Shown: positions 2,198 to 42,890 of the stretch, in pieces
Numbering within the stretch: position 1 is the stretch's first letter
Layout: each line of letters opens with the position of its first letter
Virus genome (UHGV): UHGV-0286546
Direction: 5' to 3' (one strand)
DNA from: a virus
DNA length: 64,000 bases
The notes under the pieces: model-generated
Seen by the model: the letters and a program-made list of their open reading frames with translations, nothing else
Database searches by the model: none
Told to the model about the DNA's origin: nothing
Made by a program: the position numbers and the translations under genes

Positions 2198-2228
2198 AAG
2201 GGGGATTGTTTATTTCCCCCTTCTTTTA
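2198..2228. terminator. Bidirectional rho-independent terminator between convergent genes
   Basis: Perfect 8-bp GC-rich stem AAGGGGGA/TCCCCCTT (2198-2205 / 2215-2222) with T-runs on both strands. Lies between the + ORF ending at 2197 and the - ORF ending at 2226. Confidence 0.6.
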
Positions 2229-2759: not shown

Positions 2760-3056
2760 ATGGTTAAATGGTATATAAATACAGTTTATGACGGTCAGGA
2801 AAAAATAAGCGAATGTGGTTATTTTTTATGTAATTCGTTTCATAATTCAATTAAAAAGACTAATGGTATTTATTTTTCCTTTGCTGATTTGGATTACTGT
2901 GTTATTAAAGATTCACTTATAGCCGGAAGCTTAGGTAAAACTAAAGACATTTTACGGGTATTGAAATGGATTGTTGATAATAAATTTGATTGCTCACAAA
3001 AAGTAATAGATAAGTTTCTTAAGAAGACTTTAGATTATACGGAGAAACATCAATGA
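2760..3056 (+). CDS. Hypothetical protein
   Basis: ORF only. Overlaps the ligase start (ATGA). Confidence 0.3.
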   Translation: MVKWYINTVYDGQEKISECGYFLCNSFHNSIKKTNGIYFSFADLDYCVIKDSLIAGSLGKTKDILRVLKWIVDNKFDCSQKVIDKFLKKTLDYTEKHQ

Positions 3057-13160: not shown

Positions 13161-13619
13161 ATGAATAAACAATTATCACCACTTGGACGTGGTTCTCTTT
13201 CTCGTATTATCGATTCACCTTTTTCTTCATTTATTGACGCATTTTTTTCAGAGGCTCTTCCTTTAAGCCTTGTTGATCGTCAAGAATCGTATCCGAAATA
13301 TAATATTCTCAGAAAAAACAAAGATGTAACTGATCAATTTACTATTGAACTCAGTTTGGCAGGTTTTTCTAAAGACACAATTAGTGTTTCAACAAAAAAT
13401 GATATTCTATATGTTGAAAATACTAATGCTGGCTGGAAAGAATGTGCAGAATGCGATTATCTTTATAAGGGTATTGCAGAACGTGATTTTAAATGGAAAC
13501 TTAAACTTCCTAAATTCTCAGTAATTGATAAAGTTACTTTTATTAATGGTATTCTTTCAATCGATATTTCTATTAAAATTCCTGAAAGTGAAAAACCTAA
13601 AATTTATACAATAGACTAA
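13161..13619 (+). CDS. ibpA: Small heat shock protein, IbpA/Hsp20 (alpha-crystallin) family
   Basis: Close resemblance to E. coli IbpA as recalled: 'YPKYNI' (YPPYNV), 'TIELSLAGFSKD', 'YKGIAERDFKWKLKL', 'INGILSIDISIKIPESEKPKI'. Confidence 0.8.
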   Translation: MNKQLSPLGRGSLSRIIDSPFSSFIDAFFSEALPLSLVDRQESYPKYNILRKNKDVTDQFTIELSLAGFSKDTISVSTKNDILYVENTNAGWKECAECDYLYKGIAERDFKWKLKLPKFSVIDKVTFINGILSIDISIKIPESEKPKIYTID

Positions 13620-15919: not shown

Positions 15920-18070
15920 TTATTTACCCAATTGTTCTTGAATCTGTGAATAACTCATGAACTTACGATTTTTCCAATCGTGCTCACGTCTGGCTTTATT
16001 CCAACCTTCAACTTTAGAAAAGTAACCAATAACACGAGTATAGTGATTAACATTCTTAGATTGACATTTAGGACATTCATCTACTTTACCTTTATGAACA
16101 TGACCACAATCTTGACATTCTACATATGTACTATTAATCGCAAAATGAGCCATTCCATATTTAACAGCATCTGAAATTAAAGTTTTAGCTTGAGAAGATG
16201 TAATCTCGGAATCGACGTTAATATGAACAATTGAACCACCTGTCATAAGCTCATTAATTTCACCGTCACGTTTCATCTTTTCGTAAATAGTATGATCTTC
16301 CCACAAACTACACCACTGATTAGCATAGATATTATATTCACCCTTGACTAAGATCTTATCTGCTTTTGCTAATTTAGGTGCCATACCTTCTGCTGGAATA
16401 GCTTCAATATTCCAAATGATATTTTCTTTTTCTGCGGCGACTTTACATTCGTTATTAAAGTAAACAAGAAAATCTTTCATATAATCATAGTCTGAATGAT
16501 TAAACTTCTTCTTTAAAATTTCATCTGCTTCAACATAGCCAACACAACCAAATGTAGAGAACATGTGTGACATATTAATCCAACCGTTAGTAATCCAAGG
16601 TTGAGTACCGCATTTTTCTAACTTATGAATTAATACACGGTGTGCTTTAAGAATTTTAGACATTTCTTCAACACGTTCACTAATAATAGCTTTGAAATCA
16701 TCATAGCTATCGGCTTCATAAGCAGCACGTGCAAAGTTAAGAGTAACAACGCGGTGAGAACCTAATGAAACTTGTGAACCTCCGAAAGAGTTAACACCAT
16801 CAGCCATAGCAATCATATCAGAATCTGATAACAGCCTACAACAGGACGCTACCTTCGTACCTTCTGAACAATACACATTGAATTTAGAAATATCTTTCTT
16901 AGTAACATAACCATATAATTTGTCGCTTTGAGATACTAATTCACGTTTACCAGTTTCTTTATCTACATCAATAGCTAAATTAATAGTAGTTACTGGAAAA
17001 GGAAATTGAAGACCATTACGAAGAGGATCACCAGCATCAAAAATATCGATATAAATTTCTTGTAATTCTTCGATGTAATCCAATACAAAATCAGTAAAGG
17101 CTTCTTTAGTATTTGGCAGTTCATTATCTTCTACGATTGCAGCTTTCTTTTCAAAATACCAAGCATAATTATCTTCATTAATCAAGTTTCTAAGTTTTTC
17201 TCTATCGAAGCAAGAAACATTTGTAAATGGAGATTCTACTGCAGATCTACTATAATGATTAACTGTATGAATAAACTGCTGAAAACAATTTACAATATAT
17301 TTACGTAATTTTTTATCTGTACGCAATTCATCTAATGTAATTCTTTCACGATAAATAGCCAAGTGTGCTGTATCTAAGAAGAAAGTACCGACTGCAACCG
17401 CACCTGCTACGTTATATGAAAGTTCACGAATTGTATCACCTAAAATGGATACATATGTTGAAACTCTTTTTGCTTGACTGGAATGTACTTGACCAAATTT
17501 ACGACCTTCCATTACTAATTTAGAAGCATCAATACAATAGCAATACGGCATAAGAATTTTTGTACTATCGTTCAAAGCTAAGGAATAATCAAACATAGAA
17601 GCCATACATTTTTTAGCTGTTTCTTTACCATATAATTCTTTAATTGTTTGATAAAGATAATCATAACCTGCTAATTTTTTATATGCTAAAATGGCTTCTG
17701 TACAAATACCTTCCATATTAATAGATGTTTTATTAGCATTTGGATCTACTGAAATATCATTAGCAGTTTGAAGATCACCAAATGTTAAAAGTGAAATAAT
17801 TGATAATGGATCGAAGTATTTTTTAGATAACCCGTGTATTTCAAGGATTTCTTCAACTTTTGTATTGAGTTCTTCTTTATCTTTTACACCATATTTAGAT
17901 TTAATGGATTTTGCTAAACATTCTGAAATATTTTTAATAGTGCGTGTAGTATTTGCTTCTGAAAGACTAATATCAATAAGCTTATTCATTTCTTCTTGAT
18001 ATGGATTTTCTTCAAGATAGTTAAACTTAGGATATTTTAAAGAAATTGCTCTTTTATTATTCGGGCTCAT
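15920..18070 (-). CDS. nrdD: Anaerobic ribonucleoside-triphosphate reductase (class III RNR)
   Basis: Size of 716 aa, a C-terminal Zn ribbon 'CQDCGHVHKGKVDECPKCQ', and a glycyl-radical-like 'TRVIGYFS' motif. It is directly followed by a radical-SAM activase gene. Confidence 0.8.
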   Translation of the reverse strand: MSPNNKRAISLKYPKFNYLEENPYQEEMNKLIDISLSEANTTRTIKNISECLAKSIKSKYGVKDKEELNTKVEEILEIHGLSKKYFDPLSIISLLTFGDLQTANDISVDPNANKTSINMEGICTEAILAYKKLAGYDYLYQTIKELYGKETAKKCMASMFDYSLALNDSTKILMPYCYCIDASKLVMEGRKFGQVHSSQAKRVSTYVSILGDTIRELSYNVAGAVAVGTFFLDTAHLAIYRERITLDELRTDKKLRKYIVNCFQQFIHTVNHYSRSAVESPFTNVSCFDREKLRNLINEDNYAWYFEKKAAIVEDNELPNTKEAFTDFVLDYIEELQEIYIDIFDAGDPLRNGLQFPFPVTTINLAIDVDKETGKRELVSQSDKLYGYVTKKDISKFNVYCSEGTKVASCCRLLSDSDMIAMADGVNSFGGSQVSLGSHRVVTLNFARAAYEADSYDDFKAIISERVEEMSKILKAHRVLIHKLEKCGTQPWITNGWINMSHMFSTFGCVGYVEADEILKKKFNHSDYDYMKDFLVYFNNECKVAAEKENIIWNIEAIPAEGMAPKLAKADKILVKGEYNIYANQWCSLWEDHTIYEKMKRDGEINELMTGGSIVHINVDSEITSSQAKTLISDAVKYGMAHFAINSTYVECQDCGHVHKGKVDECPKCQSKNVNHYTRVIGYFSKVEGWNKARREHDWKNRKFMSYSQIQEQLGK

Positions 18071-22474: not shown

Positions 22475-23365
22475 TTATACCGCAATATCAAATTTTACTC
22501 TTTCGCCGTGTTGATATCCTTCAAGACTAGCCATACCCGGCATAAAATTAAATACTGTCGCAGAAGGATCTAATACCAACTTAGGTAATTCATATTGTTC
22601 TTTTCGCCATGTCGGTAACATCTCTTTTACTTTTTCTACATGATTATCATAAATGTGACAATTACACAAATTTAAAGTTACTGTACCGGGTTTCATATTT
22701 ACAGTTTGACACATAAGATGCAAAAGTAAAGCATAAAATGACAAATCAGTCGGAACTCCAAGTATTGTATCAGCAGATCGTTGATTGACTGTAATATGTA
22801 ATCTACCACCTAAATAATTAAACTGAAATACATAAACACAAGGCGGAAGTCCCATAGTATCTGCGTTTGCTGGATCCAAAGCAGTAATTAACAAACGCCT
22901 ATCGTATGGATTTTTCTTTAACGTATCAACAACATGTTGTAATTGATCAAAACCTTGTCCTGTATAATCGGTATTTTCATCTATATATTTGGCGCCAAAA
23001 TGTCTATAATTGAAGCCATAAATATTTCCTAAATCATTTTCTTGTAATTGAAATGCTTTACGCTCTTCATCTGATAAGCCAGCAGGTACTTTTTTAGGAT
23101 TACACCATTCTTTCCAATATCCACATTCACGCTCAACAAAAACCTTCTTAGATGTTATGCCTTCGAGAAAACAGCTTACTTCACCTTTCATGCTTTTAAA
23201 AAACTGCTGACGAAAGGTAAGCATAGGAAAACCGTCTTTTAAATCCCAAGTAAGAACTTTATTTAATCTTACTAAAGTGTTATTACCTGTACGACACGGA
23301 TTAATTTCTCCGTTATTTAAAATATCTTCTACAATATCTAAATATTGATTATCATATGCACTCAT
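22475..23365 (-). CDS. Thymidylate-synthase-family enzyme with cytosine-specific Asp (dCMP hydroxymethylase- or dCMP methylase-like)
   Basis: Aligns with E. coli ThyA across 'RRLLITALD...LPPCVYVFQF...QRSADTILGVPTDLSFYALL'. The catalytic Cys of the PPC block is conserved. The pyrimidine-specificity Asn of ThyA 'FNIASY' is replaced by Asp ('TDLSFY'), as in T4 gp42. Confidence 0.7.
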   Translation of the reverse strand: MSAYDNQYLDIVEDILNNGEINPCRTGNNTLVRLNKVLTWDLKDGFPMLTFRQQFFKSMKGEVSCFLEGITSKKVFVERECGYWKEWCNPKKVPAGLSDEERKAFQLQENDLGNIYGFNYRHFGAKYIDENTDYTGQGFDQLQHVVDTLKKNPYDRRLLITALDPANADTMGLPPCVYVFQFNYLGGRLHITVNQRSADTILGVPTDLSFYALLLHLMCQTVNMKPGTVTLNLCNCHIYDNHVEKVKEMLPTWRKEQYELPKLVLDPSATVFNFMPGMASLEGYQHGERVKFDIAV

Positions 23366-23384
23366 TTACATTTTCCTTGTTTTG

Positions 23385-24032
23385 TTATTTAATCCATCGA
23401 ATAATAGGTTCACTTGTACAGTCTTTTTGCCATACATACCAACAATACGCTGCAGCTCCAGAATTTTTAAATGTACCACCACCTTTACCACAGCCTTGTC
23501 TATCTACATGAACATAAACATATTTTGGTGGATATTGTTTAAATAAAGAATAACGTTTAGCTGATTCAAGAAAAGTTAATTTCATAAACATTACTACTAA
23601 ACCATTATCTTTTACTGCTTCTATACTTCTTTCAACAAATTCACGAGCTTTCGAATACGGAGGATTTGTAATTATACAATCAAATTTATTATCATACTTT
23701 TTATTAGTTAAAAAATCTAAACCTGATTCTTCACCATATCCTCTGTCAACTAAATCTGTAGAAAAAACTGTATATCCATTATCTTTGAGAACTTTACTTA
23801 TTGCACCGTCACCACATGCGTTTTCCCATATAGTATTAGGTAAAGTTAGGTTTGTTTCTTTTGCTACATTAAGAAATAATTTTACAGAATCAGGATGAGT
23901 AGCATAAAAATCGTTTTCTTCTACTTCTTCTTCCTTTTTCCTGTGATTAGTAGTATAAAAGCCTTTATTTCCACCAGTCCAATCTTTACTCATGTAATAA
24001 AATCCTTCCAAAATCATATTTAAACTGATCAA
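23385..24032 (-). CDS. SAM-dependent methyltransferase with NPPY motif (putative DNA N6-adenine/N4-cytosine MTase)
   Basis: Motif I-like 'ENACGDGAIS' and motif IV 'ITNPPY'. Confidence 0.5.
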   Translation of the reverse strand: MISLNMILEGFYYMSKDWTGGNKGFYTTNHRKKEEEVEENDFYATHPDSVKLFLNVAKETNLTLPNTIWENACGDGAISKVLKDNGYTVFSTDLVDRGYGEESGLDFLTNKKYDNKFDCIITNPPYSKAREFVERSIEAVKDNGLVVMFMKLTFLESAKRYSLFKQYPPKYVYVHVDRQGCGKGGGTFKNSGAAAYCWYVWQKDCTSEPIIRWIK

Positions 24033-24648
24033 TTAAAAAATCCGAGCCGTTAACCTGTTTAAATAGCATATATGTATTCTTTTTATTGTAAGGTTGTATA
24101 AAACGAGCTTCAATATATTTTTTAGCTTCTGTAATACTATGAAAAGAATGTAAGGATTTATCATAGTATTCAGTTGACCATTTTTTATATTTAGGTGTTA
24201 CAATACAATATTCCATTTTACCGTCTGGATATTTTACCATTACATATAAATCATCATTAGAATAGGTATGACGACTATATACTTTAATACACTCGGCAAG
24301 ATTACGTGTTTCATCTGTTATTTCTAAAGCATTACCAGCTAAAGAAAGAATTTGTACTGTACATTGTCCTAAATCAATAGGTACATTTAAATCTATTTCT
24401 TGAGTATGTGTTGCGTAAATAAAAAGAATATCTGATCTATTAGCAGTCAAATTTCTTAAAATAGAGTATTGAGATGTATTTGAAAAATTATGAGCGGAAT
24501 GTGAAGGTGTTTCTTTTTTAATTTCTAAGACTACTGTCAAACCATTATTTAATTGCAATATACCATCAATATCACTAGCACTTACACAAAATGGCATTAT
24601 TGTATTAAAATCTAAAGGTTGTTCAATAGCTTTTATATTACGAATCAT
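23986..24648 (-). CDS. Hypothetical protein
   Basis: Intact 220-aa ORF. Confidence 0.3.
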   Translation of the reverse strand: MIRNIKAIEQPLDFNTIMPFCVSASDIDGILQLNNGLTVVLEIKKETPSHSAHNFSNTSQYSILRNLTANRSDILFIYATHTQEIDLNVPIDLGQCTVQILSLAGNALEITDETRNLAECIKVYSRHTYSNDDLYVMVKYPDGKMEYCIVTPKYKKWSTEYYDKSLHSFHSITEAKKYIEARFIQPYNKKNTYMLFKQVNGSDFLIDQFKYDFGRILLHE

Positions 24649-24665
24649 CTCTTTACTTTCATATC

Positions 24666-25301
24666 TTACATATTTTCAAGATACCATAATACATTTTCTT
24701 GTAAAGCAGAAATCGTACTATTATTAAAAAATACACAATCTGGATTATCTACTTCAATCCAATCTCTTTCTGAAGGATGAACAGCATCGAGCATGACTTT
24801 TTCTTTTTCCGTAAGATCCATACCTTTATTATACTTTTCCGCAGCTTCCCAATATTCCGGTCTATCTCCACGTTCTACTCTTACAATTGTTCCACCTATA
24901 CTTCTAAGCATTTCTAGTTCATTTGGAAATCTAACATCTGTAATAACAAAATTATGCTCGTTATCGTCTAAAATTTTCTTTTTTACATTTAAATCCCAAA
25001 TATGTTTAAGAAAAGTAGGTCTAACTATATCTGTACCAATAGTAGTTAAAGCTCGACGCGGCGTAAATTCAAAACCAAATGCGTTAGACCAATATATGTC
25101 AGGTTGCTCTCTCCATTCTCTACTTTCTACTGTACGACCACTTAACATTTCTCGGGACCAACCAAACATTACACTAGCAACATCTTTTACACAATCCGCA
25201 AAAGCTAACGTAACAAAACTAGGGTCGTTCTCACAAATAATCTTTGCAATGGTATCTTTTCCTGAACCTTTTAAACCAGTAATTCCAATGATTTTTCTCA
25301 T
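24666..25301 (-). CDS. Deoxynucleoside monophosphate kinase (T4 gp1-like)
   Basis: The N-terminus 'IIGITGLKGSGKDT' matches T4 gp1 'LIFLSGVKRSGKDT'. Also 'ALTTIGTDIVR' and 'FVITDVRFPNELEMLRSIGGTIVRV' parallel gp1 blocks. Confidence 0.8.
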   Translation of the reverse strand: MRKIIGITGLKGSGKDTIAKIICENDPSFVTLAFADCVKDVASVMFGWSREMLSGRTVESREWREQPDIYWSNAFGFEFTPRRALTTIGTDIVRPTFLKHIWDLNVKKKILDDNEHNFVITDVRFPNELEMLRSIGGTIVRVERGDRPEYWEAAEKYNKGMDLTEKEKVMLDAVHPSERDWIEVDNPDCVFFNNSTISALQENVLWYLENM

Positions 25302-25547
25302 TTTTATTTTCCTTCATATACAGTAGAAATAGTACAACCACCTCTTTGTTCCATAGCTTCTCTAAGGGCAGATGCAACGCATTGAGTTTTATCTGCAGGG
25401 ATAGGTAAGCCGATCTTATAACCACTAGCATCTTCAAAAACTAAATATGTTTCACTTTTACCATTATTAGTCGGTATATTAACGATCTGAATTTTTTTAG
25501 CATTTTCCATATTATAAAACATGACTTACTTTTCCCTTCAAAATCAA

Positions 25548-26069
25548 TTACTTAGTACCTGTCGATCCGAATGACCCAGACTGTCTCTTTGTCTTTGGGC
25601 CTTTTTCATATTGTTCAGGCTTTACATACTTGAGAGCTTCACTAGATACATTTTCAATAATACCCTGTGTAATTTTTTCACCTGGATTGATTACTGTTGC
25701 GTAAGTCTTAATACCAAATAACATTCCAATAAAACCTAAAATTCCAGGATAACGTACTTTAATATCTTGACTGCCTTTAACTACTTTAAACAAATTTAAA
25801 TGGATTTCGCCTCTGTAACCCGGATCAATTACGCAAGCTCCTCTTACCAAACCTTTTTTAACTGAAACTCCGGATTTATTTTCGATTCTAAAAGTTTTAT
25901 TTTTTTCAACTTTAACTTTAATACCAGAAGGAATGTTAACTTGTTCATTCATTCTAAGAATATAAGGTTTTCCATTATTCCAATCGTTAGGTACATAAAA
26001 ATCCAATCCATTATCTTCATCTCGATTACCAGTAGGATCTTTAACGTCTCTTACTTTTGTATATATCAT
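25548..26069 (-). CDS. dUTPase-superfamily nucleotide pyrophosphatase (dUTPase or dCTPase/dUTPase)
   Basis: dUTPase motif III 'VIDPGYRGEI' and C-terminal motif V 'RQSGSFGSTG'. At 173 aa the size matches T4 gp56 dCTPase. Confidence 0.75.
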   Translation of the reverse strand: MIYTKVRDVKDPTGNRDEDNGLDFYVPNDWNNGKPYILRMNEQVNIPSGIKVKVEKNKTFRIENKSGVSVKKGLVRGACVIDPGYRGEIHLNLFKVVKGSQDIKVRYPGILGFIGMLFGIKTYATVINPGEKITQGIIENVSSEALKYVKPEQYEKGPKTKRQSGSFGSTGTK

Positions 26070-26153: not shown

Positions 26154-29100
26154 TTATTCATTACTCTCGTCACTTTCAATCAAATTTTCTTTGTTTCTTT
26201 CAAAGTAATGATATTTGGAGCGTAAAACGTATTTGTGATCTTTGTCTAATTGAATAGGTATCAAAGTAAGTAGTTCATCATACTTCACTGTTGACATTAA
26301 GACAGGGCTTAATTTTTGAACAGCAGCGAATCTACCCCCTTCTGACCAATCCTGTTTGTTTATATGCTTAATTAATGCTTCTTTGGTTATATTCTTACCT
26401 GTAAACTTCTTCGGTAAAACAACTTGCTCTTTAAGTTTAGGTAATTGTTCGATTAACTCGTCTACATTCCAAACATACTTAGATTCACAATATAATGTTT
26501 GCATCTCACCTGTTTTTGGATTAATTTGATTAGGTGTTCGTGTATACCTATTTGCTGTACTACACATTTCATCTGCACCTGTTAAATGTAACTTATACAT
26601 CAAATAATACCAGATAATTTTATATTCATTTACTTTAACTGGTCTACTTAAACGTACAACAATATGATATGATCTATGCCCTGACCAAACAACGCGATAC
26701 AGCTTATCTTTTATTGGTTCGATTAGCTCTTCTTGTTCTTCTTTGGTTAAATAATCACATTCAAATAACAGATTTTGATTATAAACACCTGCCCTGGTTG
26801 GATATTCGTCTAAGTTGTCTTTAAAAGAATTTAAGGCCTGTAAATAAGCAGGAGTTTCACTTTTGACATAATCTTCGGCATAGTATGGACCAAATACTGA
26901 TTCTGCATCTAATAAGTTCTTAGCGAAGTTAATATATACATCTGTGTTTATCTCTTCCATTGTTAAAGAGTTTACATCATCAACCAGTAACATATTTTGA
27001 GTAAAACCTGTAATTTTACTTTCTGTGTTTACAATCTCTGTCACTGGATCACCGAACTCATCTAAAATAGGTTTGCCCTTTTCATCCTTTTTAACAACTT
27101 TTCTAGCATTTCTACTTCTACTATAATATTCTTGTGTGCGCGGATCGTTTTCAAAACCTACAACAAAAGCTAAACTACGACCATCTAACTTTTCTCTTGT
27201 TATTCCGTCATAAATTTCGCCAATACTGTGTTTTTTATAAATGACAAAATCACGAGGAGAGATACCTTCTAATGGTGGGCGTTCAGTTACAAGGTTACAT
27301 AAAATTTTAGAAGTAGCTTTACCAAATTTTTCATTAGACAGATAAAAGCCTTTTGATTTGATTTTTCCATTACTAAATTGACAATAGTAATTATTAACAT
27401 TGTTCTGTTGTAAAATAGCAATATCATCAAATTCGAGGACTAACCCTGTTTCTTCCATCCATTTTTCAGCAATAGGCATAAAATCTACGTCTGCTTGCTT
27501 TTCAATCATAATACCATCAGTGTTTGTCTGTATGATATTAAAACCAGCCTCATATAATCTTTTTGCCAAGATGAATAGTAACAACTGTCCATAAGTACAA
27601 ATCGTACTATTCGACCAAGAATCAAACAACGCATTATACTGACTTAGCATTGCCCCAATTGATCCATTAAGAATAAGTTTAAGACCCAAGTTGAGTAATG
27701 TATTTCCTTCTTTTTTTGCTTTTAATCTTGTATGATAAACGTCTTTATATGCATCTGGATTTGAAGCACCTCTTGACATTAAATTATATACCACTAACAA
27801 AGATGGATATAGAGAAGCAACGTCCATATTAACTAAATTCTTACTTCCGTATTTAATTAAAGCTTGATGTAATCCACCGAATCCAAATTGATATAAATGT
27901 CCTTCATCATTACCACCCATGTAATATTCAAATTTTTCTGTAATATAATGAGGATTCGTCTGGTTTTTAATATAGAAATCTAACAATGGAGTACCAGCTA
28001 ATTCTTTATAAGCTAATTCTGGAATACTATAATAAACTTTTTTACCATTGATTTCTTTGTAGGTATTGTCTGGATTTGGTTTAGCATCTTCACCACACAA
28101 AACTTTACTTGCAAATGACGCTGCTTTGTTAATAAGAGTTTTTGCGCCCATTCCAAATTCAATAATGAGGTTCCAACGAATATCATAAGAATCTCTTGCA
28201 AACTCTCTAAACTTGTGTTTAGGATTTTCTTTTGCCTTTTCAATATCTTCTGGATCTGGTAAAAAGAGATCTCTAGTGTTATCCACGTCCATTTCACAAT
28301 ATTGTTCTACTTCTTTACGCTGTTTCATAGAAAGTGAAGTACCAATATTAAATGGAACAGAAGAATCGTAATTTCGTCTATTAAGTACTGACATTGTTAA
28401 TTTTTTCAGAGAATTTCGTCTAATATCAAAAGGCAGATGAAAAGTTAAGTCCCAAGATAAAAACGTTGGAGCTATTTCATATCTTTTTTTAGTTTTAAAT
28501 TCTGGTCGTAAAGGATAACGCTTTGCTAATTCGTGATCTTCAATAATTAAGTCAGAATATTCTTTAACTGTTGGAGCAGAATCATCTAAATATGGATATA
28601 ACATGGCATGCTTAATTACTACATCGTCATATGCAGCATTATTAAATCCAATTAAAATTTTATCTTTTATCCATTTACTTAATGCTTGGCCATCATTCCA
28701 ACATACTACTTTGTTTTTACCATCAACCGTTTTAGCAATAAATAACCAATCGTATTTAAAGACTTCGATATCGTAAATCCATTCATATTTTTTAGTAAAA
28801 TTATATCCCTGCTCAATAATTTCTTTTTCGGAGAGTATATTTTTTAATTTTGCTTTAAATACATCTTTATACCACTTTGTATACCATTCTGATGGCTCAC
28901 CTTTTTCATCACCGTAGACTTTAAAGGTTTTATCTTCGCTTGCGCTACCCTCTTGTTCTGAGATAACAGTTATTTGATCTTTATAACCAAACAAGGATAC
29001 AATTTTATTTAAGTTTTCTTCATCTGAACTATAAACAGGTACAGTGGTTAATAACTCTTTTAATGTACTAACCCATTCTCTTTTTAATTTGTCTGAGTCT

Positions 29101-29825
29101 AATAAACAAATCTCATCATTTCTGCAATAGAGTAATTTATCATTTGTATAACAATCGTATATTTTAAAGTACTCTATTTTTTTACCTTCTTTGCATAACT
29201 TAGCTTCGAAATTAAAACCTTTTATTAATTCCTTTTGGTATAATTCAATCAATTCTTTAAATTTACTGATAATTTCTACTGTACTGCAATACGGGGATTT
29301 TTCAATAGTTTTACCTACAGAACTCGAATTTAAGATACTAGGAATTCTGTGTAGGTTGTCATCGATTTCTGGCAATACAACGTAAGGTATCTCAAAGCTT
29401 TTTGTTTTACTTATACGGTCATCAGAATAAACAATGAGATTGTCTTTTTCTCTCAGCATAACGCGAATAGTAGGTTCAACAAAGAAACCTTTTTCATAAT
29501 CTTCGAAAAATGCTTTATATGCACTATATCCAACAAATGCAAAAACGAGAGTATTGAAATCTAAAGTACCCTTAATGAAATAATTATAAAGAAAATCGGC
29601 CATTACATTTTTAGTAAATAAACCGTCATAATTATTATCCTTGACGTATGTAACGTGTGTGTCTGCTGACTTAAATTTACTTTTAAAGCAATTAGATAAA
29701 TATGTCATACCAGAAGGAGAATCGAATATTTCTTCTTTGTCCTTGGGTAAATACGATTCTGAAATTAATACCAATTTTGGACCTAATGTACTTTGATATT
29801 CCTTCTTACTACGTACGTTTGTCAT
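26154..29825 (-). CDS. Family B DNA polymerase with C-terminal archaeo-eukaryotic-primase (AEP)-like domain
   Basis: PolB motif A 'DVASLYPSL', motif B 'KLILNGSIGA' and motif C 'NTDGI', plus an exonuclease-like 'YDIEV'. The last ~200 aa carry AEP motif II 'WSGHRSYHIV' and motif III 'ADEMCSTANRYTRTPNQINPKTG'. Confidence 0.85.
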   Translation of the reverse strand: MTNVRSKKEYQSTLGPKLVLISESYLPKDKEEIFDSPSGMTYLSNCFKSKFKSADTHVTYVKDNNYDGLFTKNVMADFLYNYFIKGTLDFNTLVFAFVGYSAYKAFFEDYEKGFFVEPTIRVMLREKDNLIVYSDDRISKTKSFEIPYVVLPEIDDNLHRIPSILNSSSVGKTIEKSPYCSTVEIISKFKELIELYQKELIKGFNFEAKLCKEGKKIEYFKIYDCYTNDKLLYCRNDEICLLDSDKLKREWVSTLKELLTTVPVYSSDEENLNKIVSLFGYKDQITVISEQEGSASEDKTFKVYGDEKGEPSEWYTKWYKDVFKAKLKNILSEKEIIEQGYNFTKKYEWIYDIEVFKYDWLFIAKTVDGKNKVVCWNDGQALSKWIKDKILIGFNNAAYDDVVIKHAMLYPYLDDSAPTVKEYSDLIIEDHELAKRYPLRPEFKTKKRYEIAPTFLSWDLTFHLPFDIRRNSLKKLTMSVLNRRNYDSSVPFNIGTSLSMKQRKEVEQYCEMDVDNTRDLFLPDPEDIEKAKENPKHKFREFARDSYDIRWNLIIEFGMGAKTLINKAASFASKVLCGEDAKPNPDNTYKEINGKKVYYSIPELAYKELAGTPLLDFYIKNQTNPHYITEKFEYYMGGNDEGHLYQFGFGGLHQALIKYGSKNLVNMDVASLYPSLLVVYNLMSRGASNPDAYKDVYHTRLKAKKEGNTLLNLGLKLILNGSIGAMLSQYNALFDSWSNSTICTYGQLLLFILAKRLYEAGFNIIQTNTDGIMIEKQADVDFMPIAEKWMEETGLVLEFDDIAILQQNNVNNYYCQFSNGKIKSKGFYLSNEKFGKATSKILCNLVTERPPLEGISPRDFVIYKKHSIGEIYDGITREKLDGRSLAFVVGFENDPRTQEYYSRSRNARKVVKKDEKGKPILDEFGDPVTEIVNTESKITGFTQNMLLVDDVNSLTMEEINTDVYINFAKNLLDAESVFGPYYAEDYVKSETPAYLQALNSFKDNLDEYPTRAGVYNQNLLFECDYLTKEEQEELIEPIKDKLYRVVWSGHRSYHIVVRLSRPVKVNEYKIIWYYLMYKLHLTGADEMCSTANRYTRTPNQINPKTGEMQTLYCESKYVWNVDELIEQLPKLKEQVVLPKKFTGKNITKEALIKHINKQDWSEGGRFAAVQKLSPVLMSTVKYDELLTLIPIQLDKDHKYVLRSKYHYFERNKENLIESDESNE

Positions 29826-31800: not shown

Positions 31801-32388
31801 TTATTTACGTTTTTTTACAATTTCATCACAACAGCCATAATCAATCGCTTCTTGAGCATTTAACCACAAATCACGTTGACTATCTGATTTAATGGTTTCG
31901 ACGTCTTTACCACAGCATTTAGCCAATCTTTCCATAGCTACGTCATTGATTCGTTCCATTTCTTTATAGTTTACTCTGGCATCCTGTACATTACCACTAT
32001 AACCTCCAGAAACCTGATGAATCATTACTCTAGCAGATGGATAAATTCTACGATGACCTTTTTCTCCACTCGCAGCAATAACAATACCCATACTAGCAGA
32101 CAAACCAGAAATTACCGTATAAACAGGACAACTGATTGATTCCATAATATCAATAATTGCTAATCCAGCTGTAACTGAACCACCTTGAGAATTAATAACC
32201 ATTGTAATAGGCTCATCTGGATTTTCTGACGCCAAATACAAAAGCTGTGCTGTTACCGATTCTGCCAATTCATCTCTAATTTCACCTTGACACAATACAA
32301 TTCTATCCTGTAAAAGTCTGGTGGTTAGAGATACAGCACGTTCGTTACCGTTTTGATCTCTATGAATAACTGCAGGCAATTCCAACAT
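31801..32388 (-). CDS. clpP: ATP-dependent Clp protease proteolytic subunit ClpP
   Basis: Catalytic Ser in 'GLSASMG', His in 'RVMIHQ', and 'GQGGSVTAGLAI'. Confidence 0.85.
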   Translation of the reverse strand: MLELPAVIHRDQNGNERAVSLTTRLLQDRIVLCQGEIRDELAESVTAQLLYLASENPDEPITMVINSQGGSVTAGLAIIDIMESISCPVYTVISGLSASMGIVIAASGEKGHRRIYPSARVMIHQVSGGYSGNVQDARVNYKEMERINDVAMERLAKCCGKDVETIKSDSQRDLWLNAQEAIDYGCCDEIVKKRK

Positions 32389-34552: not shown

Positions 34553-35914
34553 TTACGCAATGTCCGAAGGTGTAGGACTATAATTTACTTCTTTATTATA
34601 AAATGGTCCAACCTTATCTAACATCTTAGCAAGTTTAGTTTTGATTGTTACTTTTTCAAGGCTTACTGTACCTTCTTCAGCTTCGTCTTTTTTAAGTAAA
34701 ATCTTTGTAATGATCTTACCTAATTCGAAACACATTTCTTCAGTAAAACCTCTAGTGGTGACTGCTGCTGTACCTAAACGAATACCCGTACAGTCAGAAG
34801 GCTTTTTATCATCTTTAATCATATTTTTATTACAAATGATACTGTAAGAAGTAAGTCTATCTTCTGCTTCCTTACCGTACATGTCAGTCTTAGAAATATC
34901 TACAAGTACTAAATGATTATCAGAACCACCAGATACAAAATCAATCAAATTATTTGTGTCTTCAGCTTTGATTCCTTTAATCATTGCTTGCATATTTAAA
35001 AGAATTTGTTTAGCATATTTTTTAAAGGCCGGAGTTTGTGCTTCTATAAAACATTGAGCCTTTGCTGCAATAGTTGCTTGATTTGAACCACCTTGAGTAC
35101 GAGGAAATACACCAGCATTTAATTTATTACATAAATCTTGATCATTCCAAAGAATCAATCCACCTCTTGGTCCACGTAACGTTTTATGCGTCGTAGAAGT
35201 AACTACATCTGCATAAGGTAACGGAGAAGGATGTAAACCGGCAGCAACCAAACCAGCAATATGTGCCATATCAACCATTAAATAACAAGATTTGATTGGA
35301 GTTTCAGGATTATTAGAGCCTCCACAATCATAATAAACGGATTGATTGTAATCATCAACCATACTTTTAATTCTTTCAAATTCAATGATGCGAGAATAAG
35401 CACTTGCTCCAACAACCAATAATCTAGGTTTACAAGAATAAAGTTTCTCTCTAATTTCTTCATAATTTAAATAACCATTTTCATCGAGGCCATAATATTC
35501 AGCAACATATTCTTTACTTGTATCTGACGCTGGTGAAACGTGAGTCAAGTGTCCACCTGCTGCTAAACTCATTCCAAGAACTTTGTCACCAGGTTTTAAC
35601 AATCCTGCATATACAGCTTGATTTGCTTGAGAACCTGACCAAGGCTGAACGTTAGCATAATTACAATTAAAGAGTTTACATGCCTGCTCAATAGCATAAT
35701 TTTCGAGCTTATCAATAATATGACATCCAGCGTAATGTCTACCTTGTTTAGATACTTCCTTAGAAAAACCCTCAGAATATTTTACAGAAAAATGTGAACC
35801 CATAAGATCTAAAATATCCTGTGAAGGGTAATTTTCAGATGCAATCAATTCAATATCATTATTGAGTCGCCAAGTTTCTTCTTTTTCTAACTCTTGCAAA
35901 TATTTATTAATCAT
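34553..35914 (-). CDS. glyA: Serine hydroxymethyltransferase
   Basis: PLP-lysine block 'TTHKTLRGPRGGLIL' and the Gly-rich 'GGHLTHG' region. Length is 453 aa. Confidence 0.9.
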   Translation of the reverse strand: MINKYLQELEKEETWRLNNDIELIASENYPSQDILDLMGSHFSVKYSEGFSKEVSKQGRHYAGCHIIDKLENYAIEQACKLFNCNYANVQPWSGSQANQAVYAGLLKPGDKVLGMSLAAGGHLTHVSPASDTSKEYVAEYYGLDENGYLNYEEIREKLYSCKPRLLVVGASAYSRIIEFERIKSMVDDYNQSVYYDCGGSNNPETPIKSCYLMVDMAHIAGLVAAGLHPSPLPYADVVTSTTHKTLRGPRGGLILWNDQDLCNKLNAGVFPRTQGGSNQATIAAKAQCFIEAQTPAFKKYAKQILLNMQAMIKGIKAEDTNNLIDFVSGGSDNHLVLVDISKTDMYGKEAEDRLTSYSIICNKNMIKDDKKPSDCTGIRLGTAAVTTRGFTEEMCFELGKIITKILLKKDEAEEGTVSLEKVTIKTKLAKMLDKVGPFYNKEVNYSPTPSDIA

Positions 35915-35929: not shown

Positions 35930-36940
35930 CTATATAAAGTTTTCTTCTAATCTAAATAAACGGGTTAATTCTTGTTTCTTTTTATTTTCATCGAATTTTA
36001 TATCCTCTTCTGTATTATAATAATCTGATGTGTATTTATAAAGCTGATTATAGAATTCTTTTTTGTTTTCTGGTGTTAAATAAAAAATATCTTTTCTAAA
36101 CATAGCTTGTATATCTGCATCAATTACATTATAGTATCCTTTTGGTAACGGTACTTGTCCTAAAAACATATCAAACCAAGTATTTATATAATCTTTATCT
36201 TTTAAATTTTCAAAAACAAGGTTTTTTCCATTCCTTAAAATAAATCTTCCAAAAGTTCCAATAATCATTTGTACATTAGCTTTAAATTCATCTGGATCAT
36301 TTAAATAAGCAATGGAGTCTAGTATGTCATATTTTTTATTAGCTAAACTGTTTGTCATATCATCTACATAATGCTGTAACTCATGTAAATAATTATAATC
36401 TGTATCCAAAAATAATTTTACGATGTCTAGCTTTGTGATGTTTTCGATATTTTCAACAAAGATAATTAAAGTTTTTGTTTCATCGTCATATCCCAGCAAA
36501 ACATCTTCCGGCATTTTATATTCATTGCGCTCAGAAAACTTAACTGTTAACTTTCCAAAGACTGTATCAATTGAAAATGAATGATTATTATCTAAAGAAG
36601 AGTATAGACTTGTTTTTCTAAATTCATCTATATCATATGGAAGTGAAGCCACTGATCCATATGTTTTATATGCACCAATCATATCTTTTTCATTTCTAGA
36701 TAACTTACTATATATATCTTTTAATAAATCTCGATATATATCATTGGCAATTCTTCTTTCTCTAGTTAATTGTAACGGATCAAAAGCTTCTGTCAAATAT
36801 AAGTATTGCTTTACAGGATATTTGGCAGGAATGGAAAAACCCTTTATTTGTTGTAATGATTTTTCTACTAATCTTCCTACTTCTGTTTCAGATGTATGTT
36901 TCATAGCCAATTTATATATATTGTCCAGGTATTCATTCAT
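35930..36940 (-). CDS. Hypothetical protein
   Basis: Intact 336-aa ORF. Confidence 0.3.
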   Translation of the reverse strand: MNEYLDNIYKLAMKHTSETEVGRLVEKSLQQIKGFSIPAKYPVKQYLYLTEAFDPLQLTRERRIANDIYRDLLKDIYSKLSRNEKDMIGAYKTYGSVASLPYDIDEFRKTSLYSSLDNNHSFSIDTVFGKLTVKFSERNEYKMPEDVLLGYDDETKTLIIFVENIENITKLDIVKLFLDTDYNYLHELQHYVDDMTNSLANKKYDILDSIAYLNDPDEFKANVQMIIGTFGRFILRNGKNLVFENLKDKDYINTWFDMFLGQVPLPKGYYNVIDADIQAMFRKDIFYLTPENKKEFYNQLYKYTSDYYNTEEDIKFDENKKKQELTRLFRLEENFI

Positions 36941-36951
36941 CTATTTTGTCT

Positions 36952-38019
36952 TTAATCAGCGTAATTATCAAAATATCTTTTAACGTAAACAACCGGTGTA
37001 CCTTTGTCACCACTTCCTGATGTTAAATCCATTAAAGATCCAAGTAAATCTGTATATCTTCTGGGTGTAGTTCCTTGTGATGCCATACTACCTTTTAAAT
37101 CATTATTTTTAGTTTTAATTTCTTGTTTAATAGCATTTGTAAGTTCTTCACCAGATAGATTTTTATATTTGTCATCGGCAAAATTTTTAATCTTAATTTC
37201 ATTTGGTGTACCTTCAAGACCAGAAGTATATGCAGGGCTTACAACAGGATCAGCGAATTCCCAAATTCCTCCAATAGGATCTTTAAAACAGCCATCTCCA
37301 TAAACCATTACTTCAACTTTTTTACCAGTTTTTCCGTAAAGATATGCTTGAATCCCTTCTACAACTTGTTGAGCAAATTTACGAGATGGAAATAATTTTA
37401 ATTTTTCTTCTGTAGCTTTATTTGAACCATAAAGTCCATATTCACATTTATCAGCACAAATATCTGCCAGAGTAAATTTACCTAATTTTTCTCCACATTG
37501 AGGATGTAATCTACAATCAATAGCAGAATCAAAATCATAATTTAATGATTCATTCGGTAATTTTATATAAGCGGATTTACCTTCTCCTTCTATAATTGAT
37601 TTATAGTATTCATCATAATTAATACCTGTAAATGGATGACTTCTATACACATTTCCAACTTCATCCACACAGTCTAATCTAAGATAAACCCCCGTTTGTG
37701 CGGCACGAGCAATTGCTTTTAAAATCATTGCAAATCTATTTCTGGAAAAGATAGGACTTACAACAGTGATATAATTATGATTGCCCATTTTATTGCGAAT
37801 ATCCTCTGCAATTTCATCAACAGTAACATAATTTCCTTCTGCTCTTGCTACTATGGATTCTGTGATACCAATAATATCTCTATCTTCAATATTATCAATA
37901 GCATTGAGAACAGTATCACAAACTATTTGACAAATATCATCACCTTCACGAATAATTGGCATAATTAAACCAGTTGAACTAACTCCATATTTTTTCATGT
38001 ATAAGCTTCCTTTTCGCAC
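36952..38019 (-). CDS. F420-0:gamma-glutamyl ligase (CofE)-family domain protein with extra C-terminal region
   Basis: The N-terminus 'IREGDDICQIVCDTVLNAIDNIEDRDIIGITESIVARAEGNYVTVDEI' follows the CofE-family pattern (GDDl...dgDi..i.SKiVSkAEGr.v.l). The protein is ~100 aa longer than typical CofE. Confidence 0.4.
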   Translation of the reverse strand: MRKGSLYMKKYGVSSTGLIMPIIREGDDICQIVCDTVLNAIDNIEDRDIIGITESIVARAEGNYVTVDEIAEDIRNKMGNHNYITVVSPIFSRNRFAMILKAIARAAQTGVYLRLDCVDEVGNVYRSHPFTGINYDEYYKSIIEGEGKSAYIKLPNESLNYDFDSAIDCRLHPQCGEKLGKFTLADICADKCEYGLYGSNKATEEKLKLFPSRKFAQQVVEGIQAYLYGKTGKKVEVMVYGDGCFKDPIGGIWEFADPVVSPAYTSGLEGTPNEIKIKNFADDKYKNLSGEELTNAIKQEIKTKNNDLKGSMASQGTTPRRYTDLLGSLMDLTSGSGDKGTPVVYVKRYFDNYAD

Positions 38020-40808: not shown

Positions 40809-42890
40809 ATGGAAGATTTACCATTAGAAATTGAAGAAAAAATAGAACAATTACCGATTTTACCTTTTGAAATAAACGAAGAATTTCAAGAGCTTATGTT
40901 TTCTGACTTGTTTTCTGATATTTTCAATTTTTATAAAGAAAATTATTTACCAGATACACTTAAAACAAAATCAGAAATTTATCAAAGAATAAGTTTGTAC
41001 CTAAATCTTACCGGACAAGGCGATAAATTTACAGAAGAAACTGATAAACTCCTTTGGCGAAGACCTTGCCCTGATATTCATACCTTCTTGGCAGATAAAT
41101 TTTACATGGGATATAACAACAGTACTTTGTATCCATTCTGGCGTGAAAAACTAGAGTACATGTTTAGAGATTCTTCACCTGTTAGAAAAGCTATATTTTC
41201 GGGTTGTATAGGATCTGGTAAGTCGACAGTAGCTCGTAAAGCCTTCGTATACGTTCTATATCGCTTACTTTGTTTACGCTATCCACGCTCTGTACTTAAT
41301 ATTGACCAAGATGCTACAATTGCAAACGTCGTTATTGCTACAACTCTGAAACAAGTGTATGAAGTTAATATTCTTCCATTTATTAAACTTATGGAAACAA
41401 TGCCTTGCTTTCAAAGAGTTATGTCACAGAGGTCCTTTGAAAACTTTAATCTCGAAGATCCTCTTTGCCCTATACCTTTTTATTTTGAAAAAAGCAGTGG
41501 TACAATACATTTTCCTGACAATATTATTTTAACCAGTGGTAGTCAACCGACACACTTTACTGGTATGAATGTCATTAATTCATTCTGCTTCACAGAAACT
41601 ACAAAAGTATATACAAACGTTGGAACAATTACATTTGCTTCATTATTAACGCGTTTTAATCGTAAAGAAAAAATATATACATATACTATAGACAAAAACG
41701 GAAATAAAGAAAAAAGTTTAATTACAGACGTTAAAGTAACCGGGTATAAAACAGATTTAATTAGAATCTATTATGAGGATGATAGATATATCGAATGTAC
41801 TCCAGAACATCCTTTTGTAATATCTAATCCAAAAGAGAACGATAAACATGTAATATATGAAAACGGAATCCCATACAAACAAGCTCAATACTTAACAGAA
41901 GAAGATGAAATAGTATCCGAAAAACATGCCTTTGTTTATGAATTAATTGACAATCGACCAGATTCGGCATATTTCAACAAACCGTTTTATATTGGAATAA
42001 GTACGCATGATAATACGCTTGTAAAGTCACATTCTGTTAAATTTTTAAGACCTTACTCACATTTTACAAACAAATCACTAAAAAATGAAGCGAATTTAAT
42101 AAAAAAGAGTATTATTACAAAGATTTTGACAGCAGGTTTGAAACCAAAAATAAATATCATAAAAGAAAATTTAACTTTACAAGAAGCATATACTTTAGAA
42201 AAAGAATTGATCAATAAATATGGAAAAAGATATGACAATTCCGGAATATTAGCAAATATAAGTTCAGGTGGGGAAGGTATAATACTAACTACTCCGGATA
42301 TAATTAAAAGAAAAAGTGAAAATATAAAGAAAACTAAAGCAAAAATTCGTGCGCAAAAAATCGCCGAAAAACAACAAGAATGGGATACTTTGATAAGTAG
42401 TATATCTGGACGTTTGGCTATAATGATCGTATGCTTGCAATACATTGACGCTGTTCGGAAACGTTACCAACAAGGTGCTAATTCACCGCATAAGAAAGAA
42501 GTATCGAGGCAAAATATGATTAAATATAATAAATCAGAAGAACATAGAAAATTAACAGCGTATTATAATTCCATTCGTCCAAAAGTTTCTTCTAAAGAGA
42601 GTAGAGAAAAATTAAGTAAAAGCCAAAAAGAAGCATGGCGTAGAAAACCAATAGAAGAAAAAAGAGAAGTCAGTATCGGAAGAAGTTTAACAAATGCTTG
42701 GAATGTTTTACAAAAAATAGAAGGAAACAAAATTAACTCAAAGATTTTTAATGCTCATAGAATACCAAAAACTATGCATTCACGTACCGATCCTTGCTGG
42801 GAAACCTTGGTTAAAAAAATAGGAAGTGTTGAAAAGTTTTTAGATATGGTTAATAAAAAATACGGTAAGAGGTTTATATATGAAGATTAA
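40809..42890 (+). CDS. Terminase large subunit N-extein fused to intein N-lobe plus GIY-YIG/NUMOD endonuclease
   Basis: Terminase Walker A 'SGCIGSGKST'. The intein starts at Cys 41586 ('CFTETTKVYT') with block B 'TPEHPF'. A GIY-YIG core ('FVYELID...FYIGIS') and NUMOD-like DNA-binding repeats ('SEEHRKL...SKESREKLSKSQ') follow. Confidence 0.75.
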   Translation: MEDLPLEIEEKIEQLPILPFEINEEFQELMFSDLFSDIFNFYKENYLPDTLKTKSEIYQRISLYLNLTGQGDKFTEETDKLLWRRPCPDIHTFLADKFYMGYNNSTLYPFWREKLEYMFRDSSPVRKAIFSGCIGSGKSTVARKAFVYVLYRLLCLRYPRSVLNIDQDATIANVVIATTLKQVYEVNILPFIKLMETMPCFQRVMSQRSFENFNLEDPLCPIPFYFEKSSGTIHFPDNIILTSGSQPTHFTGMNVINSFCFTETTKVYTNVGTITFASLLTRFNRKEKIYTYTIDKNGNKEKSLITDVKVTGYKTDLIRIYYEDDRYIECTPEHPFVISNPKENDKHVIYENGIPYKQAQYLTEEDEIVSEKHAFVYELIDNRPDSAYFNKPFYIGISTHDNTLVKSHSVKFLRPYSHFTNKSLKNEANLIKKSIITKILTAGLKPKINIIKENLTLQEAYTLEKELINKYGKRYDNSGILANISSGGEGIILTTPDIIKRKSENIKKTKAKIRAQKIAEKQQEWDTLISSISGRLAIMIVCLQYIDAVRKRYQQGANSPHKKEVSRQNMIKYNKSEEHRKLTAYYNSIRPKVSSKESREKLSKSQKEAWRRKPIEEKREVSIGRSLTNAWNVLQKIEGNKINSKIFNAHRIPKTMHSRTDPCWETLVKKIGSVEKFLDMVNKKYGKRFIYED

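Follow-up and report, generated by a model that had tools for sequence, protein, structure and literature searches.

An Asp177 ThyA homologue and a probable pre-replicative 5-methylcytosine pathway in an uncultured phage lineage

Introduction

The phage genome UHGV-0286546, of which we analyzed a 64,000-nt stretch (hereafter the window; the full genome may measure 100-240 kb), encodes a homologue of thymidylate synthase (TS, ThyA) in which the Asn that reads the base is replaced by Asp. In TS this residue, Asn177 of the Escherichia coli enzyme, is the established determinant for uracil, and Asp in its place inverts the preference (PMC8670742; PMC13326640). Three products have been documented for Asp177 homologues of ThyA: 5-hydroxymethyl-dCMP, 5-hydroxy-dCMP and 5-methyl-dCMP (dCMP, deoxycytidine monophosphate). 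The locus therefore raises the question of whether the phage replaces cytosine in its DNA and, if so, with which base. A sequence-only reading of the window had described a T-even-like module for 5-hydroxymethyl- or 5-methylcytosine, possibly further decorated. Here, we examined the enzyme, its relatives and its gene neighborhood. The results suggest that the phage probably makes 5-methyl-dCTP before replication, in the manner of phage Xp12, and that 5-methylcytosine (5mC) replaces cytosine in its DNA.

Results

The ThyA-like enzyme carries Asp177 as a property of its lineage

The gene in question is the following.
22475..23365, minus strand: ThyA-family enzyme (PF00303), 296 aa, Asp at the Asn177 position; predicted dCMP C5-methylase

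This open reading frame (ORF) matched PF00303 over the full length of the model (E=5.8e-72, 242.5 bits, model 1-266 of 266), and its best structural relatives were solved TSs (E=9e-56). In the phmmer alignment, 'GVPTDLSFYAL' of the ORF stood in gapless columns with 'GVPFNIASYAL' of the solved TSs, and alignment to E. coli ThyA (sequence from NC_000913) by MAFFT placed the Asp on position 177. In E. coli numbering, the ORF has kept C146, E58, W80, W83, Y94, R21, R126, R127 and R166, and so belongs to the ThyA superfamily with its catalytic Cys146 and phosphate-binding Arg. Its signature is N177D and H147V with L143 and D169 retained, and its C-terminus (...IAV) stops at the I264 equivalent. With Asp177 and Val147 in place of Asn177 and His147, it falls outside canonical TSs, while the TIGR03284 thymidylate-synthase model gave it 192 bits against a cut-off of 108. 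In MetaGPA, no other residues were as strongly linked to cytosine modification of metavirome phage contigs as positions 177 and 147 (PMC8670742), and both are switched in this ORF.

A protein search with the ORF gave 857 matches at E<=1e-20, and the best 120 of these (61-99% identity) were tabulated; the clade counts given here refer to those 120. Asp177 was present in 120/120, as were Asp169 and Leu at Cys-3 (position 143), both shared with the query. His147 was replaced by Leu, Met or Val in all of them, and the tail ...F-x-[IV]-A-[VI] ended precisely at the I264 equivalent in all of them. The Tyr-2 residue, Asn in the query, was Asn in 117 and Pro in 3, and Trp83 was present in 118. Besides H147 to Val/Leu/Met, the clade has fixed C168 to Ala, F176 to Thr/Ala and D205 to Asn. 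Because every listed homologue has Asp177, we conclude from these sequences that it is a property of the lineage, and neither a sequencing error nor a single-case change. The homology over the whole catalytic core and the Asn-to-Asp switch, both proposed in the sequence-only reading, are thus borne out by the full-length PF00303 match, the alignment to E. coli ThyA and the relatives.

When 1.84 billion cluster representatives were searched exhaustively, the Asp-type clade appeared as one representative (494 bits), after which the matches fell to 39% identity and 233 bits; at 50% clustering the clade stands apart. The nearest outgroups (<=41% identity) were TSs with Leu-His-Asp-Asn, a canonical signature found in 96 of 149 outgroups, many of which were fusions of dihydrofolate reductase (DHFR) with TS. 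The picture is that of a canonical TS having undergone an Asn-to-Asp switch, and judging from the outgroups the switch appears to have occurred independently of Xp12 and PaMx74, on a canonical, eukaryote-like TS scaffold.

The active-site residues favor 5-methyl-dCMP as the product

A ternary-complex study of the T4 dCMP hydroxymethylase (dCH, gp42) provides a set of features by which a hydroxymethylase can be recognized. Asp or Glu at Cys-3 activates the substrate water, and the D145N enzyme is inactive; Ser or Thr stands at Tyr-2, Trp83 is changed to Val, and the C-terminal tail, which in TS seals the active site for hydride transfer, is absent (PMC6400193). The window enzyme shares Asp177 with gp42. 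By the Cys-3 rule (PMC6400193, PMC13326640) it differs, having Leu there, and it also has Asn at Tyr-2, Trp83 and the tail. Its identity to gp42 was 22% over 131 aa (E=2e-9). We therefore rejected a T4-type dCH identity, since all four of the features tested were missing, and the label 'T-even-like', with the hydroxymethylcytosine that it implied, is not supported.

The 5-hydroxy-dCMP synthases, RB69 gp48 and DLP3 gp80, are marked by D169N and also carry L143E (PMC13326640). Since D169 is kept in the window enzyme, its residues indicate that it is not a 5-hydroxy-dCMP synthase. 5-Methyl-dCMP is the product in Xp12 and PaMx74, and also of five out of seven Asp177 ThyA homologues from metaviromes that were assayed; in that work, the Xp12 homologue served as the positive control and gave 5-methyldeoxycytidine (5mdC) (bioRxiv 10.1101/2024.12.05.627091). 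The window enzyme agrees with the Xp12-type methylases in Asp177, a hydrophobic residue at 143 and the retained Asp169, but does not form a common clade with the verified Xp12 and PaMx74 enzymes. If dCMP is indeed the substrate of the enzyme, we consider 5-methyl-dCMP quite likely to be its product, because a canonical TS scaffold with the Asn-to-Asp switch is present and the hydroxymethylase signature is missing. Thus replacement of cytosine by a C5-modified form that is synthesized ahead of replication is still the best general reading of the locus, and of the two options offered in the sequence-only reading the methyl group is clearly favored over the hydroxymethyl group.

A conserved nucleotide-metabolism module surrounds the gene

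All ORFs named in the sequence-only reading exist where it had placed them, on the minus strand. Except for the deaminase gene, they lie in a single long minus-strand block (15.2-38.0 kb) of replication and nucleotide-metabolism genes, in which the genes around the ThyA-like ORF are, in the order of transcription, as follows.
26154..29825, minus strand: B-type DNA polymerase, 1223 aa (phrog_1252)
25548..26069, minus strand: trimeric dUTPase-family protein (PF00692) of a distinct subfamily; dUTPase and/or candidate dCTPase
25304..25522, minus strand: small ORF of 48-72 aa between the dUTPase-family gene and the kinase; no family match
24666..25301, minus strand: deoxynucleoside monophosphate (dNMP) kinase of the T4 gp1 (DNMK) family (PF21448, phrog_139); predicted to phosphorylate 5-methyl-dCMP
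23986..24648, minus strand: conserved 220-aa protein with no assigned function, also in the related contigs L004, L008 and L012
23385..23993, minus strand: NPPY DNA methyltransferase (N6-adenine/N4-cytosine type), 202 aa (phrog_799, PF07669)

The ThyA-like gene follows last. The order polymerase, dUTPase-family gene, small ORF, DNMK kinase, 220-aa ORF and Asp-type ThyA gene was kept in L004, L008 and L012, and the ThyA, kinase and dUTPase-family genes do form a conserved, co-oriented nucleotide-metabolism module, as had been proposed, with a deaminase gene elsewhere in the window.

The kinase matched PF21448 (66.7 bits, cut-off 27.1) and phrog_139 (4.2e-47), and its P-loop 'GLKGSGKDT' aligned to 'GVKRSGKDT' of gp1 (motif GxxGSGKD). 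It had been called a close homologue of gp1; the family is right, but the relationship is distant (23% identity, E=3e-6), gp1 itself scoring 357.9 bits on PF21448. The kinase gene was found beside the Asp-type ThyA gene in L004, L008 and L012. This fixed place in three related contig lineages supports a role for the predicted kinase in phosphorylating the modified monophosphate.

The dUTPase-family ORF matched PF00692 with 38.9 bits (gathering cut-off 22) and contains all five dUTPase motifs, including the C-terminal R-x-x-G-F-G-S-T-G, whereas it stayed below the curated dut models TIGR00576 / NF001862 (64.4 vs 102.55 and 54.6 vs 103 bits). In its subfamily (155-174 aa; P0121-P0213), motif III ends in Lys where an Asn is otherwise conserved, and an insertion of 10-24 aa follows directly. 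Remoter relatives, about 147 aa long, retain the Asn and lack the insertion, and the closest solved relatives, staphylococcal phage Duts, carry an insertion in the equivalent position. We considered the Asn-to-Lys change as a loss of the uracil-contacting Asn and rejected this: after re-indexing, Asn84 of E. coli Dut lies upstream of motif III, in a position that is gapped here. The subfamily co-occurs with Asp-type ThyA across unrelated phage lineages, and the ORF is 66% identical to a copy beside the Asp-type ThyA gene of the otherwise unrelated L005 lineage. The description of this enzyme as gp56-like was accurate for dUTPase-superfamily membership and for length, but not for the fold: T4 gp56 belongs to PF08761 and is all-alpha, whereas the window ORF belongs to PF00692, and BLASTP detected no similarity (E=12). 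T4, RB69 and DLP3 employ all-alpha dCTP pyrophosphatases, and in the literature searched no trimeric-fold dCTPase was found in modified-cytosine phages. From its sequence and setting, a dCTPase role for the dUTPase-family protein is possible, though not by way of a likeness to gp56.

The methyltransferase contains 'IITNPPYSK' and matched phrog_799 (3.6e-63) and PF07669 (29.7 bits). An NPPY methyltransferase inside the module is thus confirmed, with its start at 23993 rather than 24032; the 202-aa call was taken from L012, and the gene overlaps the upstream 220-aa ORF by 8 nt. The protein is 84% identical to that of L008 6452..7060, which is placed elsewhere in the L008 module. Because its position varies among related genomes, the methyltransferase, as judged from gene order, does not count among the constant components of the pathway.

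The 220-aa ORF is always located between the kinase and Asp-type ThyA genes in related contigs (44% identity to L008 9291..9944). It had no match in Pfam, PHROG or NCBIfam, and 4 homologues were found. Its AF2 model was poor (pLDDT 56.7), and Foldseek gave nothing in the PDB below E=0.028, with TM<0.25. Invariant D26/D28 and E42-x-K44 fall on predicted strands; the pattern D26/D28...E42-x-K44 would be compatible with a possible PD-(D/E)xK nuclease core, in a model of low confidence. The small ORF fills the same position in L004, L008 and L012.

The DNA polymerase had no Pfam match at E<=0.01, phrog_1252 being its sole family match, and its best relatives in isolate phages were 24-29% identical across about half its length. 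It carries N-terminal (~340 aa) and C-terminal (~250 aa) extensions without assigned function. Beyond the ThyA-like gene, the same block encodes a metallophosphoesterase, NrdG, NrdD and a histidine phosphatase, and upstream of the polymerase lie genes for UvsX/RecA, ClpP, an HNH endonuclease, a serine hydroxymethyltransferase and a CofE-like ligase.

Deaminase and serine hydroxymethyltransferase genes recur with the Asp-type ThyA gene

Two further enzymes of the window bear on the fate of dCMP and on one-carbon supply.
2226..2681, minus strand: zinc deaminase of the dCMP deaminase family (PF00383, phrog_174)
34553..35914, minus strand: serine hydroxymethyltransferase (GlyA/SHMT; PF00464, NF000586)

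The deaminase matched PF00383 (5.2e-20, 71.7 vs 25 bits) and phrog_174 (5e-43), in agreement with its earlier assignment as a dCMP deaminase. Its zinc motifs 'HAEENA' and 'PCVHC' align with human DCTD, and its solved relatives are human DCTD and the cyanophage and T4 dCMP deaminases. It shared 33-35% identity with the deaminases of Xp12 and PaMx74, and 55% with that of L005, whose gene lies 5 kb from the Asp-type ThyA gene. The protein is predicted to make dUMP (deoxyuridine monophosphate) from dCMP and/or thymidine nucleotides from 5-methyl-deoxycytidine (5-methyl-dC) nucleotides. The SHMT, overlooked in the sequence-only reading, matched PF00464 (5.1e-116, 388 bits) and NF000586 (450.5 bits, cut-off 335). 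In L005/L007, a homologue 45% identical to the window SHMT is encoded 0.8 kb from the Asp-type ThyA gene. The phage SHMT is predicted to regenerate 5,10-methylene-tetrahydrofolate (methylene-THF), the one-carbon donor for the ThyA-family enzyme.

In a second lineage, contigs L005-L007, which is not otherwise related to the window, the Asp-type ThyA gene is surrounded by genes of the radical-SAM, NUDIX and MazG-like kinds. The genes common to the window and L005 are four, for the Asp-type ThyA (66% identity), the dUTPase-family protein (66%), the SHMT (45%) and the deaminase (55%), and in the L005 lineage they lie within about 6 kb.

As to the other contents of L005 (1..9959 of ENA SHIW14-1 scaffold_434, 81.7 kb), four radical-SAM genes, a NUDIX hydrolase, a PF18909 protein (dATP/dGTP diphosphohydrolase N-terminal, MazG-like) and a Cys/Met-metabolism pyridoxal phosphate enzyme precede the Asp-type ThyA gene, and an iron-sulfur (FeS)-assembly protein, the SHMT and the deaminase follow it. 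From its composition, this gene set might produce a more elaborate base modification.

Two genes from the SHMT, the window encodes a homologue of CofE-like F420-0:gamma-glutamyl ligase (36952..38019, minus strand, 355 aa) that matched PF01996 (2.1e-45), has a large insertion and lies far under the NCBIfam cofE cut-offs. Its place next to the SHMT raises the speculative idea that the phage may drive polyglutamylation of a folate-type cofactor. Between the two genes is a 336-aa ORF (35930..36940, minus strand) with a zincin-like HELQH motif. It was considered as a hidden DHFR and rejected, having no family or PDB match and an HExxH motif instead.

Searches for missing partners and for restriction-site avoidance

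By tblastn and Pfam searches, we found in the window no DHFR, no pyrophosphohydrolase of the Xp12/PaMx74 type, no gp56, no alpha- or beta-glucosyltransferase, no second TS and no ThyX; the sole RHRxxS (ThyX) match in the window runs across a stop codon. In relatives, too, no DHFR gene was found up to a distance of 10 kb from the ThyA-like gene. Nor was any glycosyltransferase, dioxygenase or carbamoyltransferase found in the window, so the further decoration that had been held possible gained no support there.

GGCC was depleted in the window (12 observed vs 32.6 expected, 0.37x, z=-3.6), as were CATG (0.56x, z=-5.6) and GATC (0.78x). GGCC depletion was also seen in the related contigs L004 and L008 (0.39x), and not in T4, Xp12 or PaMx74. 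Among these controls, the fully modified T4 avoids GATC (0.35x), CATG and TCGA, and PaMx74 avoids GATC and CTAG. We therefore rejected palindrome avoidance as a proxy for modification, since the calibration on T4, Xp12 and PaMx74 showed that the test cannot discriminate.

Phage, host and other genes of the window

No close isolated phage was found: megablast gave no match, no near-identical isolate was present in the phage collection, and the best ThyA-like match among isolate phages (50,697 phage records) was 35% identical. The genome is AT-rich (about 30% G+C, 70% A+T). The phage is an uncultured one, and its host is probably an anaerobic inhabitant of gut or rumen. P0157, a homologue of the dUTPase-family protein 25548..26069, is deposited in a Succinivibrionaceae metagenome-assembled genome (MGN1393820.1), possibly a hint at the host group, or a phage contig that was co-binned.

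Four further ORFs (31801..32388, minus strand; 13161..13619, 3053..5002 and 40809..42890, plus strand) comprise a phage-encoded ClpP protease (4.7e-59), an Hsp20 small heat-shock protein, an NAD-dependent DNA ligase with a BRCT domain, and a 693-aa ORF with a weak intein-splicing match. NrdD (15920..18070) is uninterrupted in the window, and its relatives differ in this respect: an intein interrupts NrdD in L004 (15684..19010), and NUMOD3/DUF7487 homing-endonuclease-like ORFs split it in L008 (14717..17695) and L009 (4876..7964).

Discussion

Inferring substrate, product and virion DNA substitution from the observed genes, families, residues, conservation, synteny and co-inheritance, we propose the following pathway. 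dCMP would come from the breakdown of host DNA, and perhaps also from dCTP that the Dut-family enzyme hydrolyses. The ThyA-family enzyme would bind dCMP rather than dUMP, owing to the replacement of Asn177 by Asp and of His147 by a hydrophobic residue. With methylene-THF it would carry out TS chemistry, including hydride transfer in a site sealed by the tail, to give 5-methyl-dCMP and dihydrofolate (DHF). The DNMK kinase would convert 5-methyl-dCMP to the diphosphate, a host NDP kinase would make the triphosphate, and the phage polymerase would incorporate it. The phage SHMT would maintain methylene-THF, and DHF would be reduced by the host or by a gene outside the window. The dUTPase-family enzyme would clear dUTP and may also hydrolyse dCTP, thereby feeding dCMP and excluding plain cytosine. 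The deaminase would open a thymidylate branch, from dCMP to dUMP or from 5-methyl-dC to thymidine (dT) nucleotides, as in Xp12-type phages; this branch would supply thymidylate and so explain why no ordinary TS was seen. Deaminases linked to Asp177 ThyA have been proposed to supply dT nucleotides, and one of them, studied in vitro, converted 5mdCTP to dTTP (bioRxiv 10.1101/2024.12.05.627091).

Several points weigh against this proposal. The chief one is the missing DHFR, because methylation yields DHF whereas hydroxymethylation regenerates THF, and DHFR was found neither in the window nor within 10 kb in relatives; for a hydroxymethylase, one would expect just this combination of an SHMT with no DHFR (PMC6400193). 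The DHFR of the host could, however, do the work. Furthermore, the clade is 28-30% identical to the Xp12/PaMx74 enzymes and 32% identical to E. coli ThyA, being no nearer to the former than to the latter, and therefore function cannot be transferred by homology. The clade's product is a prediction from sequence, and the Leu143 rule is a correlation according to its authors. A recognized dCTPase was not found in the window, the deaminase gene lies 20 kb from the ThyA gene there, and the window covers 64 kb of possibly 100-240 kb. Finally, GGCC avoidance at 0.37x would be unexpected if all cytosine were 5mC, in a test that is itself non-discriminating.

The missing DHFR also bears on the possibility of a T-even-like pathway, in which a dCH would make 5-hydroxymethyl-dCMP with regeneration of THF and hydroxymethylcytosine, possibly decorated, would enter the DNA. 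Such a pathway would need exactly the cofactor recycling that a phage SHMT without detectable DHFR affords (PMC6400193), Asp177 is common to gp42, and a DNMK-family kinase adjoins the gene as gp1 serves gp42. We nevertheless regard it as unlikely, in view of Leu at Cys-3, Asn at Tyr-2, Trp83 and the conserved tail, of the 22% identity to gp42 compared with E=9e-56 to true TSs, and of the failure to find a glucosyl- or other transferase in the window. Alternatively, the enzyme pair might serve thymidylate synthesis alone, with dCMP passing through 5-methyl-dC to dT nucleotides, dCTP not excluded and little or no 5mC in virion DNA. This would fit the high thymidylate demand of a genome with 70% A+T, the lack of a canonical TS, ThyX or recognized dCTPase among the genes found in the window, and the description of 5mC-selective deaminases linked to Asp177 ThyA (bioRxiv 10.1101/2024.12.05.627091). 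But in Xp12 and PaMx74 the same enzyme pair accompanies complete replacement of cytosine by 5mC (bioRxiv 10.1101/2024.12.05.627091), the dNMP kinase beside ThyA implies that the modified monophosphate is driven to the triphosphate pool for the polymerase, and the route would be a detour compared with host ThyA; we give it little credence.

Could the enzyme simply be a TS that methylates dUMP despite Asp177, amid routine phage nucleotide metabolism? Its TIGR03284 score would suit this, and dUTPase, dCMP deaminase, dNMP kinase and SHMT are also normal suppliers of the dTMP (thymidine monophosphate) pathway. However, Asp at 177 reverses the uracil preference (PMC8670742; PMC13326640), Asp177 is fixed and His147 lost throughout the listed relatives while the nearest outgroups have Asn and His, and 5mdC was obtained with five of the seven Asp177 enzymes assayed from metaviromes (bioRxiv 10.1101/2024.12.05.627091), which makes an ordinary TS highly improbable. 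We therefore retain pre-replicative synthesis of 5-methyl-dCTP as the probable function. A stronger version, a full pathway from cytosine to 5mC with an undescribed parts list (independent dCMP methylase, a trimeric dUTPase-fold enzyme with the Asn-to-Lys change and insertion in the role of dCTPase, SHMT perhaps with the CofE-like protein, and a TS-free deaminase route), we put forward only tentatively, as a rather doubtful possibility.

Among known systems, Xp12 and PaMx74 resemble the window in Asp177 on a ThyA fold with Cys146, Asp169 and Tyr94, in a deaminase gene in the genome, in the pre-replicative logic and in the predicted methyl product. Unlike the window, they have pyrophosphohydrolase/HAD hydrolase, ThyA, deaminase and DHFR genes in a row, whereas the window combines genes for a trimeric dUTPase-family protein, a kinase of the gp1 family and an SHMT, and no DHFR was found in it. 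With T4 the window shares Asp at the base-reading position, a PF21448 kinase, a dCMP deaminase and the general plan of producing a modified dCTP ahead of replication; it differs in having PF00692 where gp56 is PF08761, in that glucosyltransferases were not found in the window, and in an enzyme that has none of the Asp at Cys-3, the Ser at Tyr-2 and the Val for Trp83 of gp42 and keeps the tail that gp42 lacks. RB69 gp48 and DLP3 gp80 are likewise Asp177 ThyA homologues that act on dCMP with a cognate dNMP kinase, but they have D169N and L143E and use flavin and O2, whereas the window enzyme keeps Asp169 and Leu143 (PMC13326640). A further parallel to the change at the base-reading position is an engineered one: the N229D TS of Lactobacillus casei and the N177D TS of E. 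coli shift their preference to dCMP and yield 5-methyl-dCMP (Liu and Santi 1992; Hardy and Nalivaika 1992, as cited in PMC8670742). Like these mutants, the window enzyme combines a canonical TS site and tail with the Asn-to-Asp change; unlike them, it belongs to a natural, conserved lineage with further fixed changes.

Because Asp177 ThyA enzymes with deaminases have already been mined from metaviromes (PMC8670742; bioRxiv 10.1101/2024.12.05.627091), we regard the locus, on its sequence features, as a new lineage of a known, Xp12-like pathway with an unusual set of partners, and not as a new kind of system. The enzyme appears to be a natural version of the N229D/N177D specificity switch, and as such may serve as a model for the discrimination between uracil and cytosine and possibly as a reagent for producing 5-methyl-dC nucleotides. 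Curated models name the gene 'thymidylate synthase', so that annotation misses the modification unless position 177 is checked. If the pathway is confirmed, the 857 matches, on contigs of up to ~240 kb, would represent a widespread phage lineage with probable 5mC-substituted DNA in anaerobic gut- and rumen-type samples. About 90% of the type II restriction enzymes tested failed on Xp12 DNA (PMC7653180). DNA of this kind would resist most type II enzymes, and because 5mC DNA may sequence or amplify poorly, such phages are possibly under-represented in viromes.

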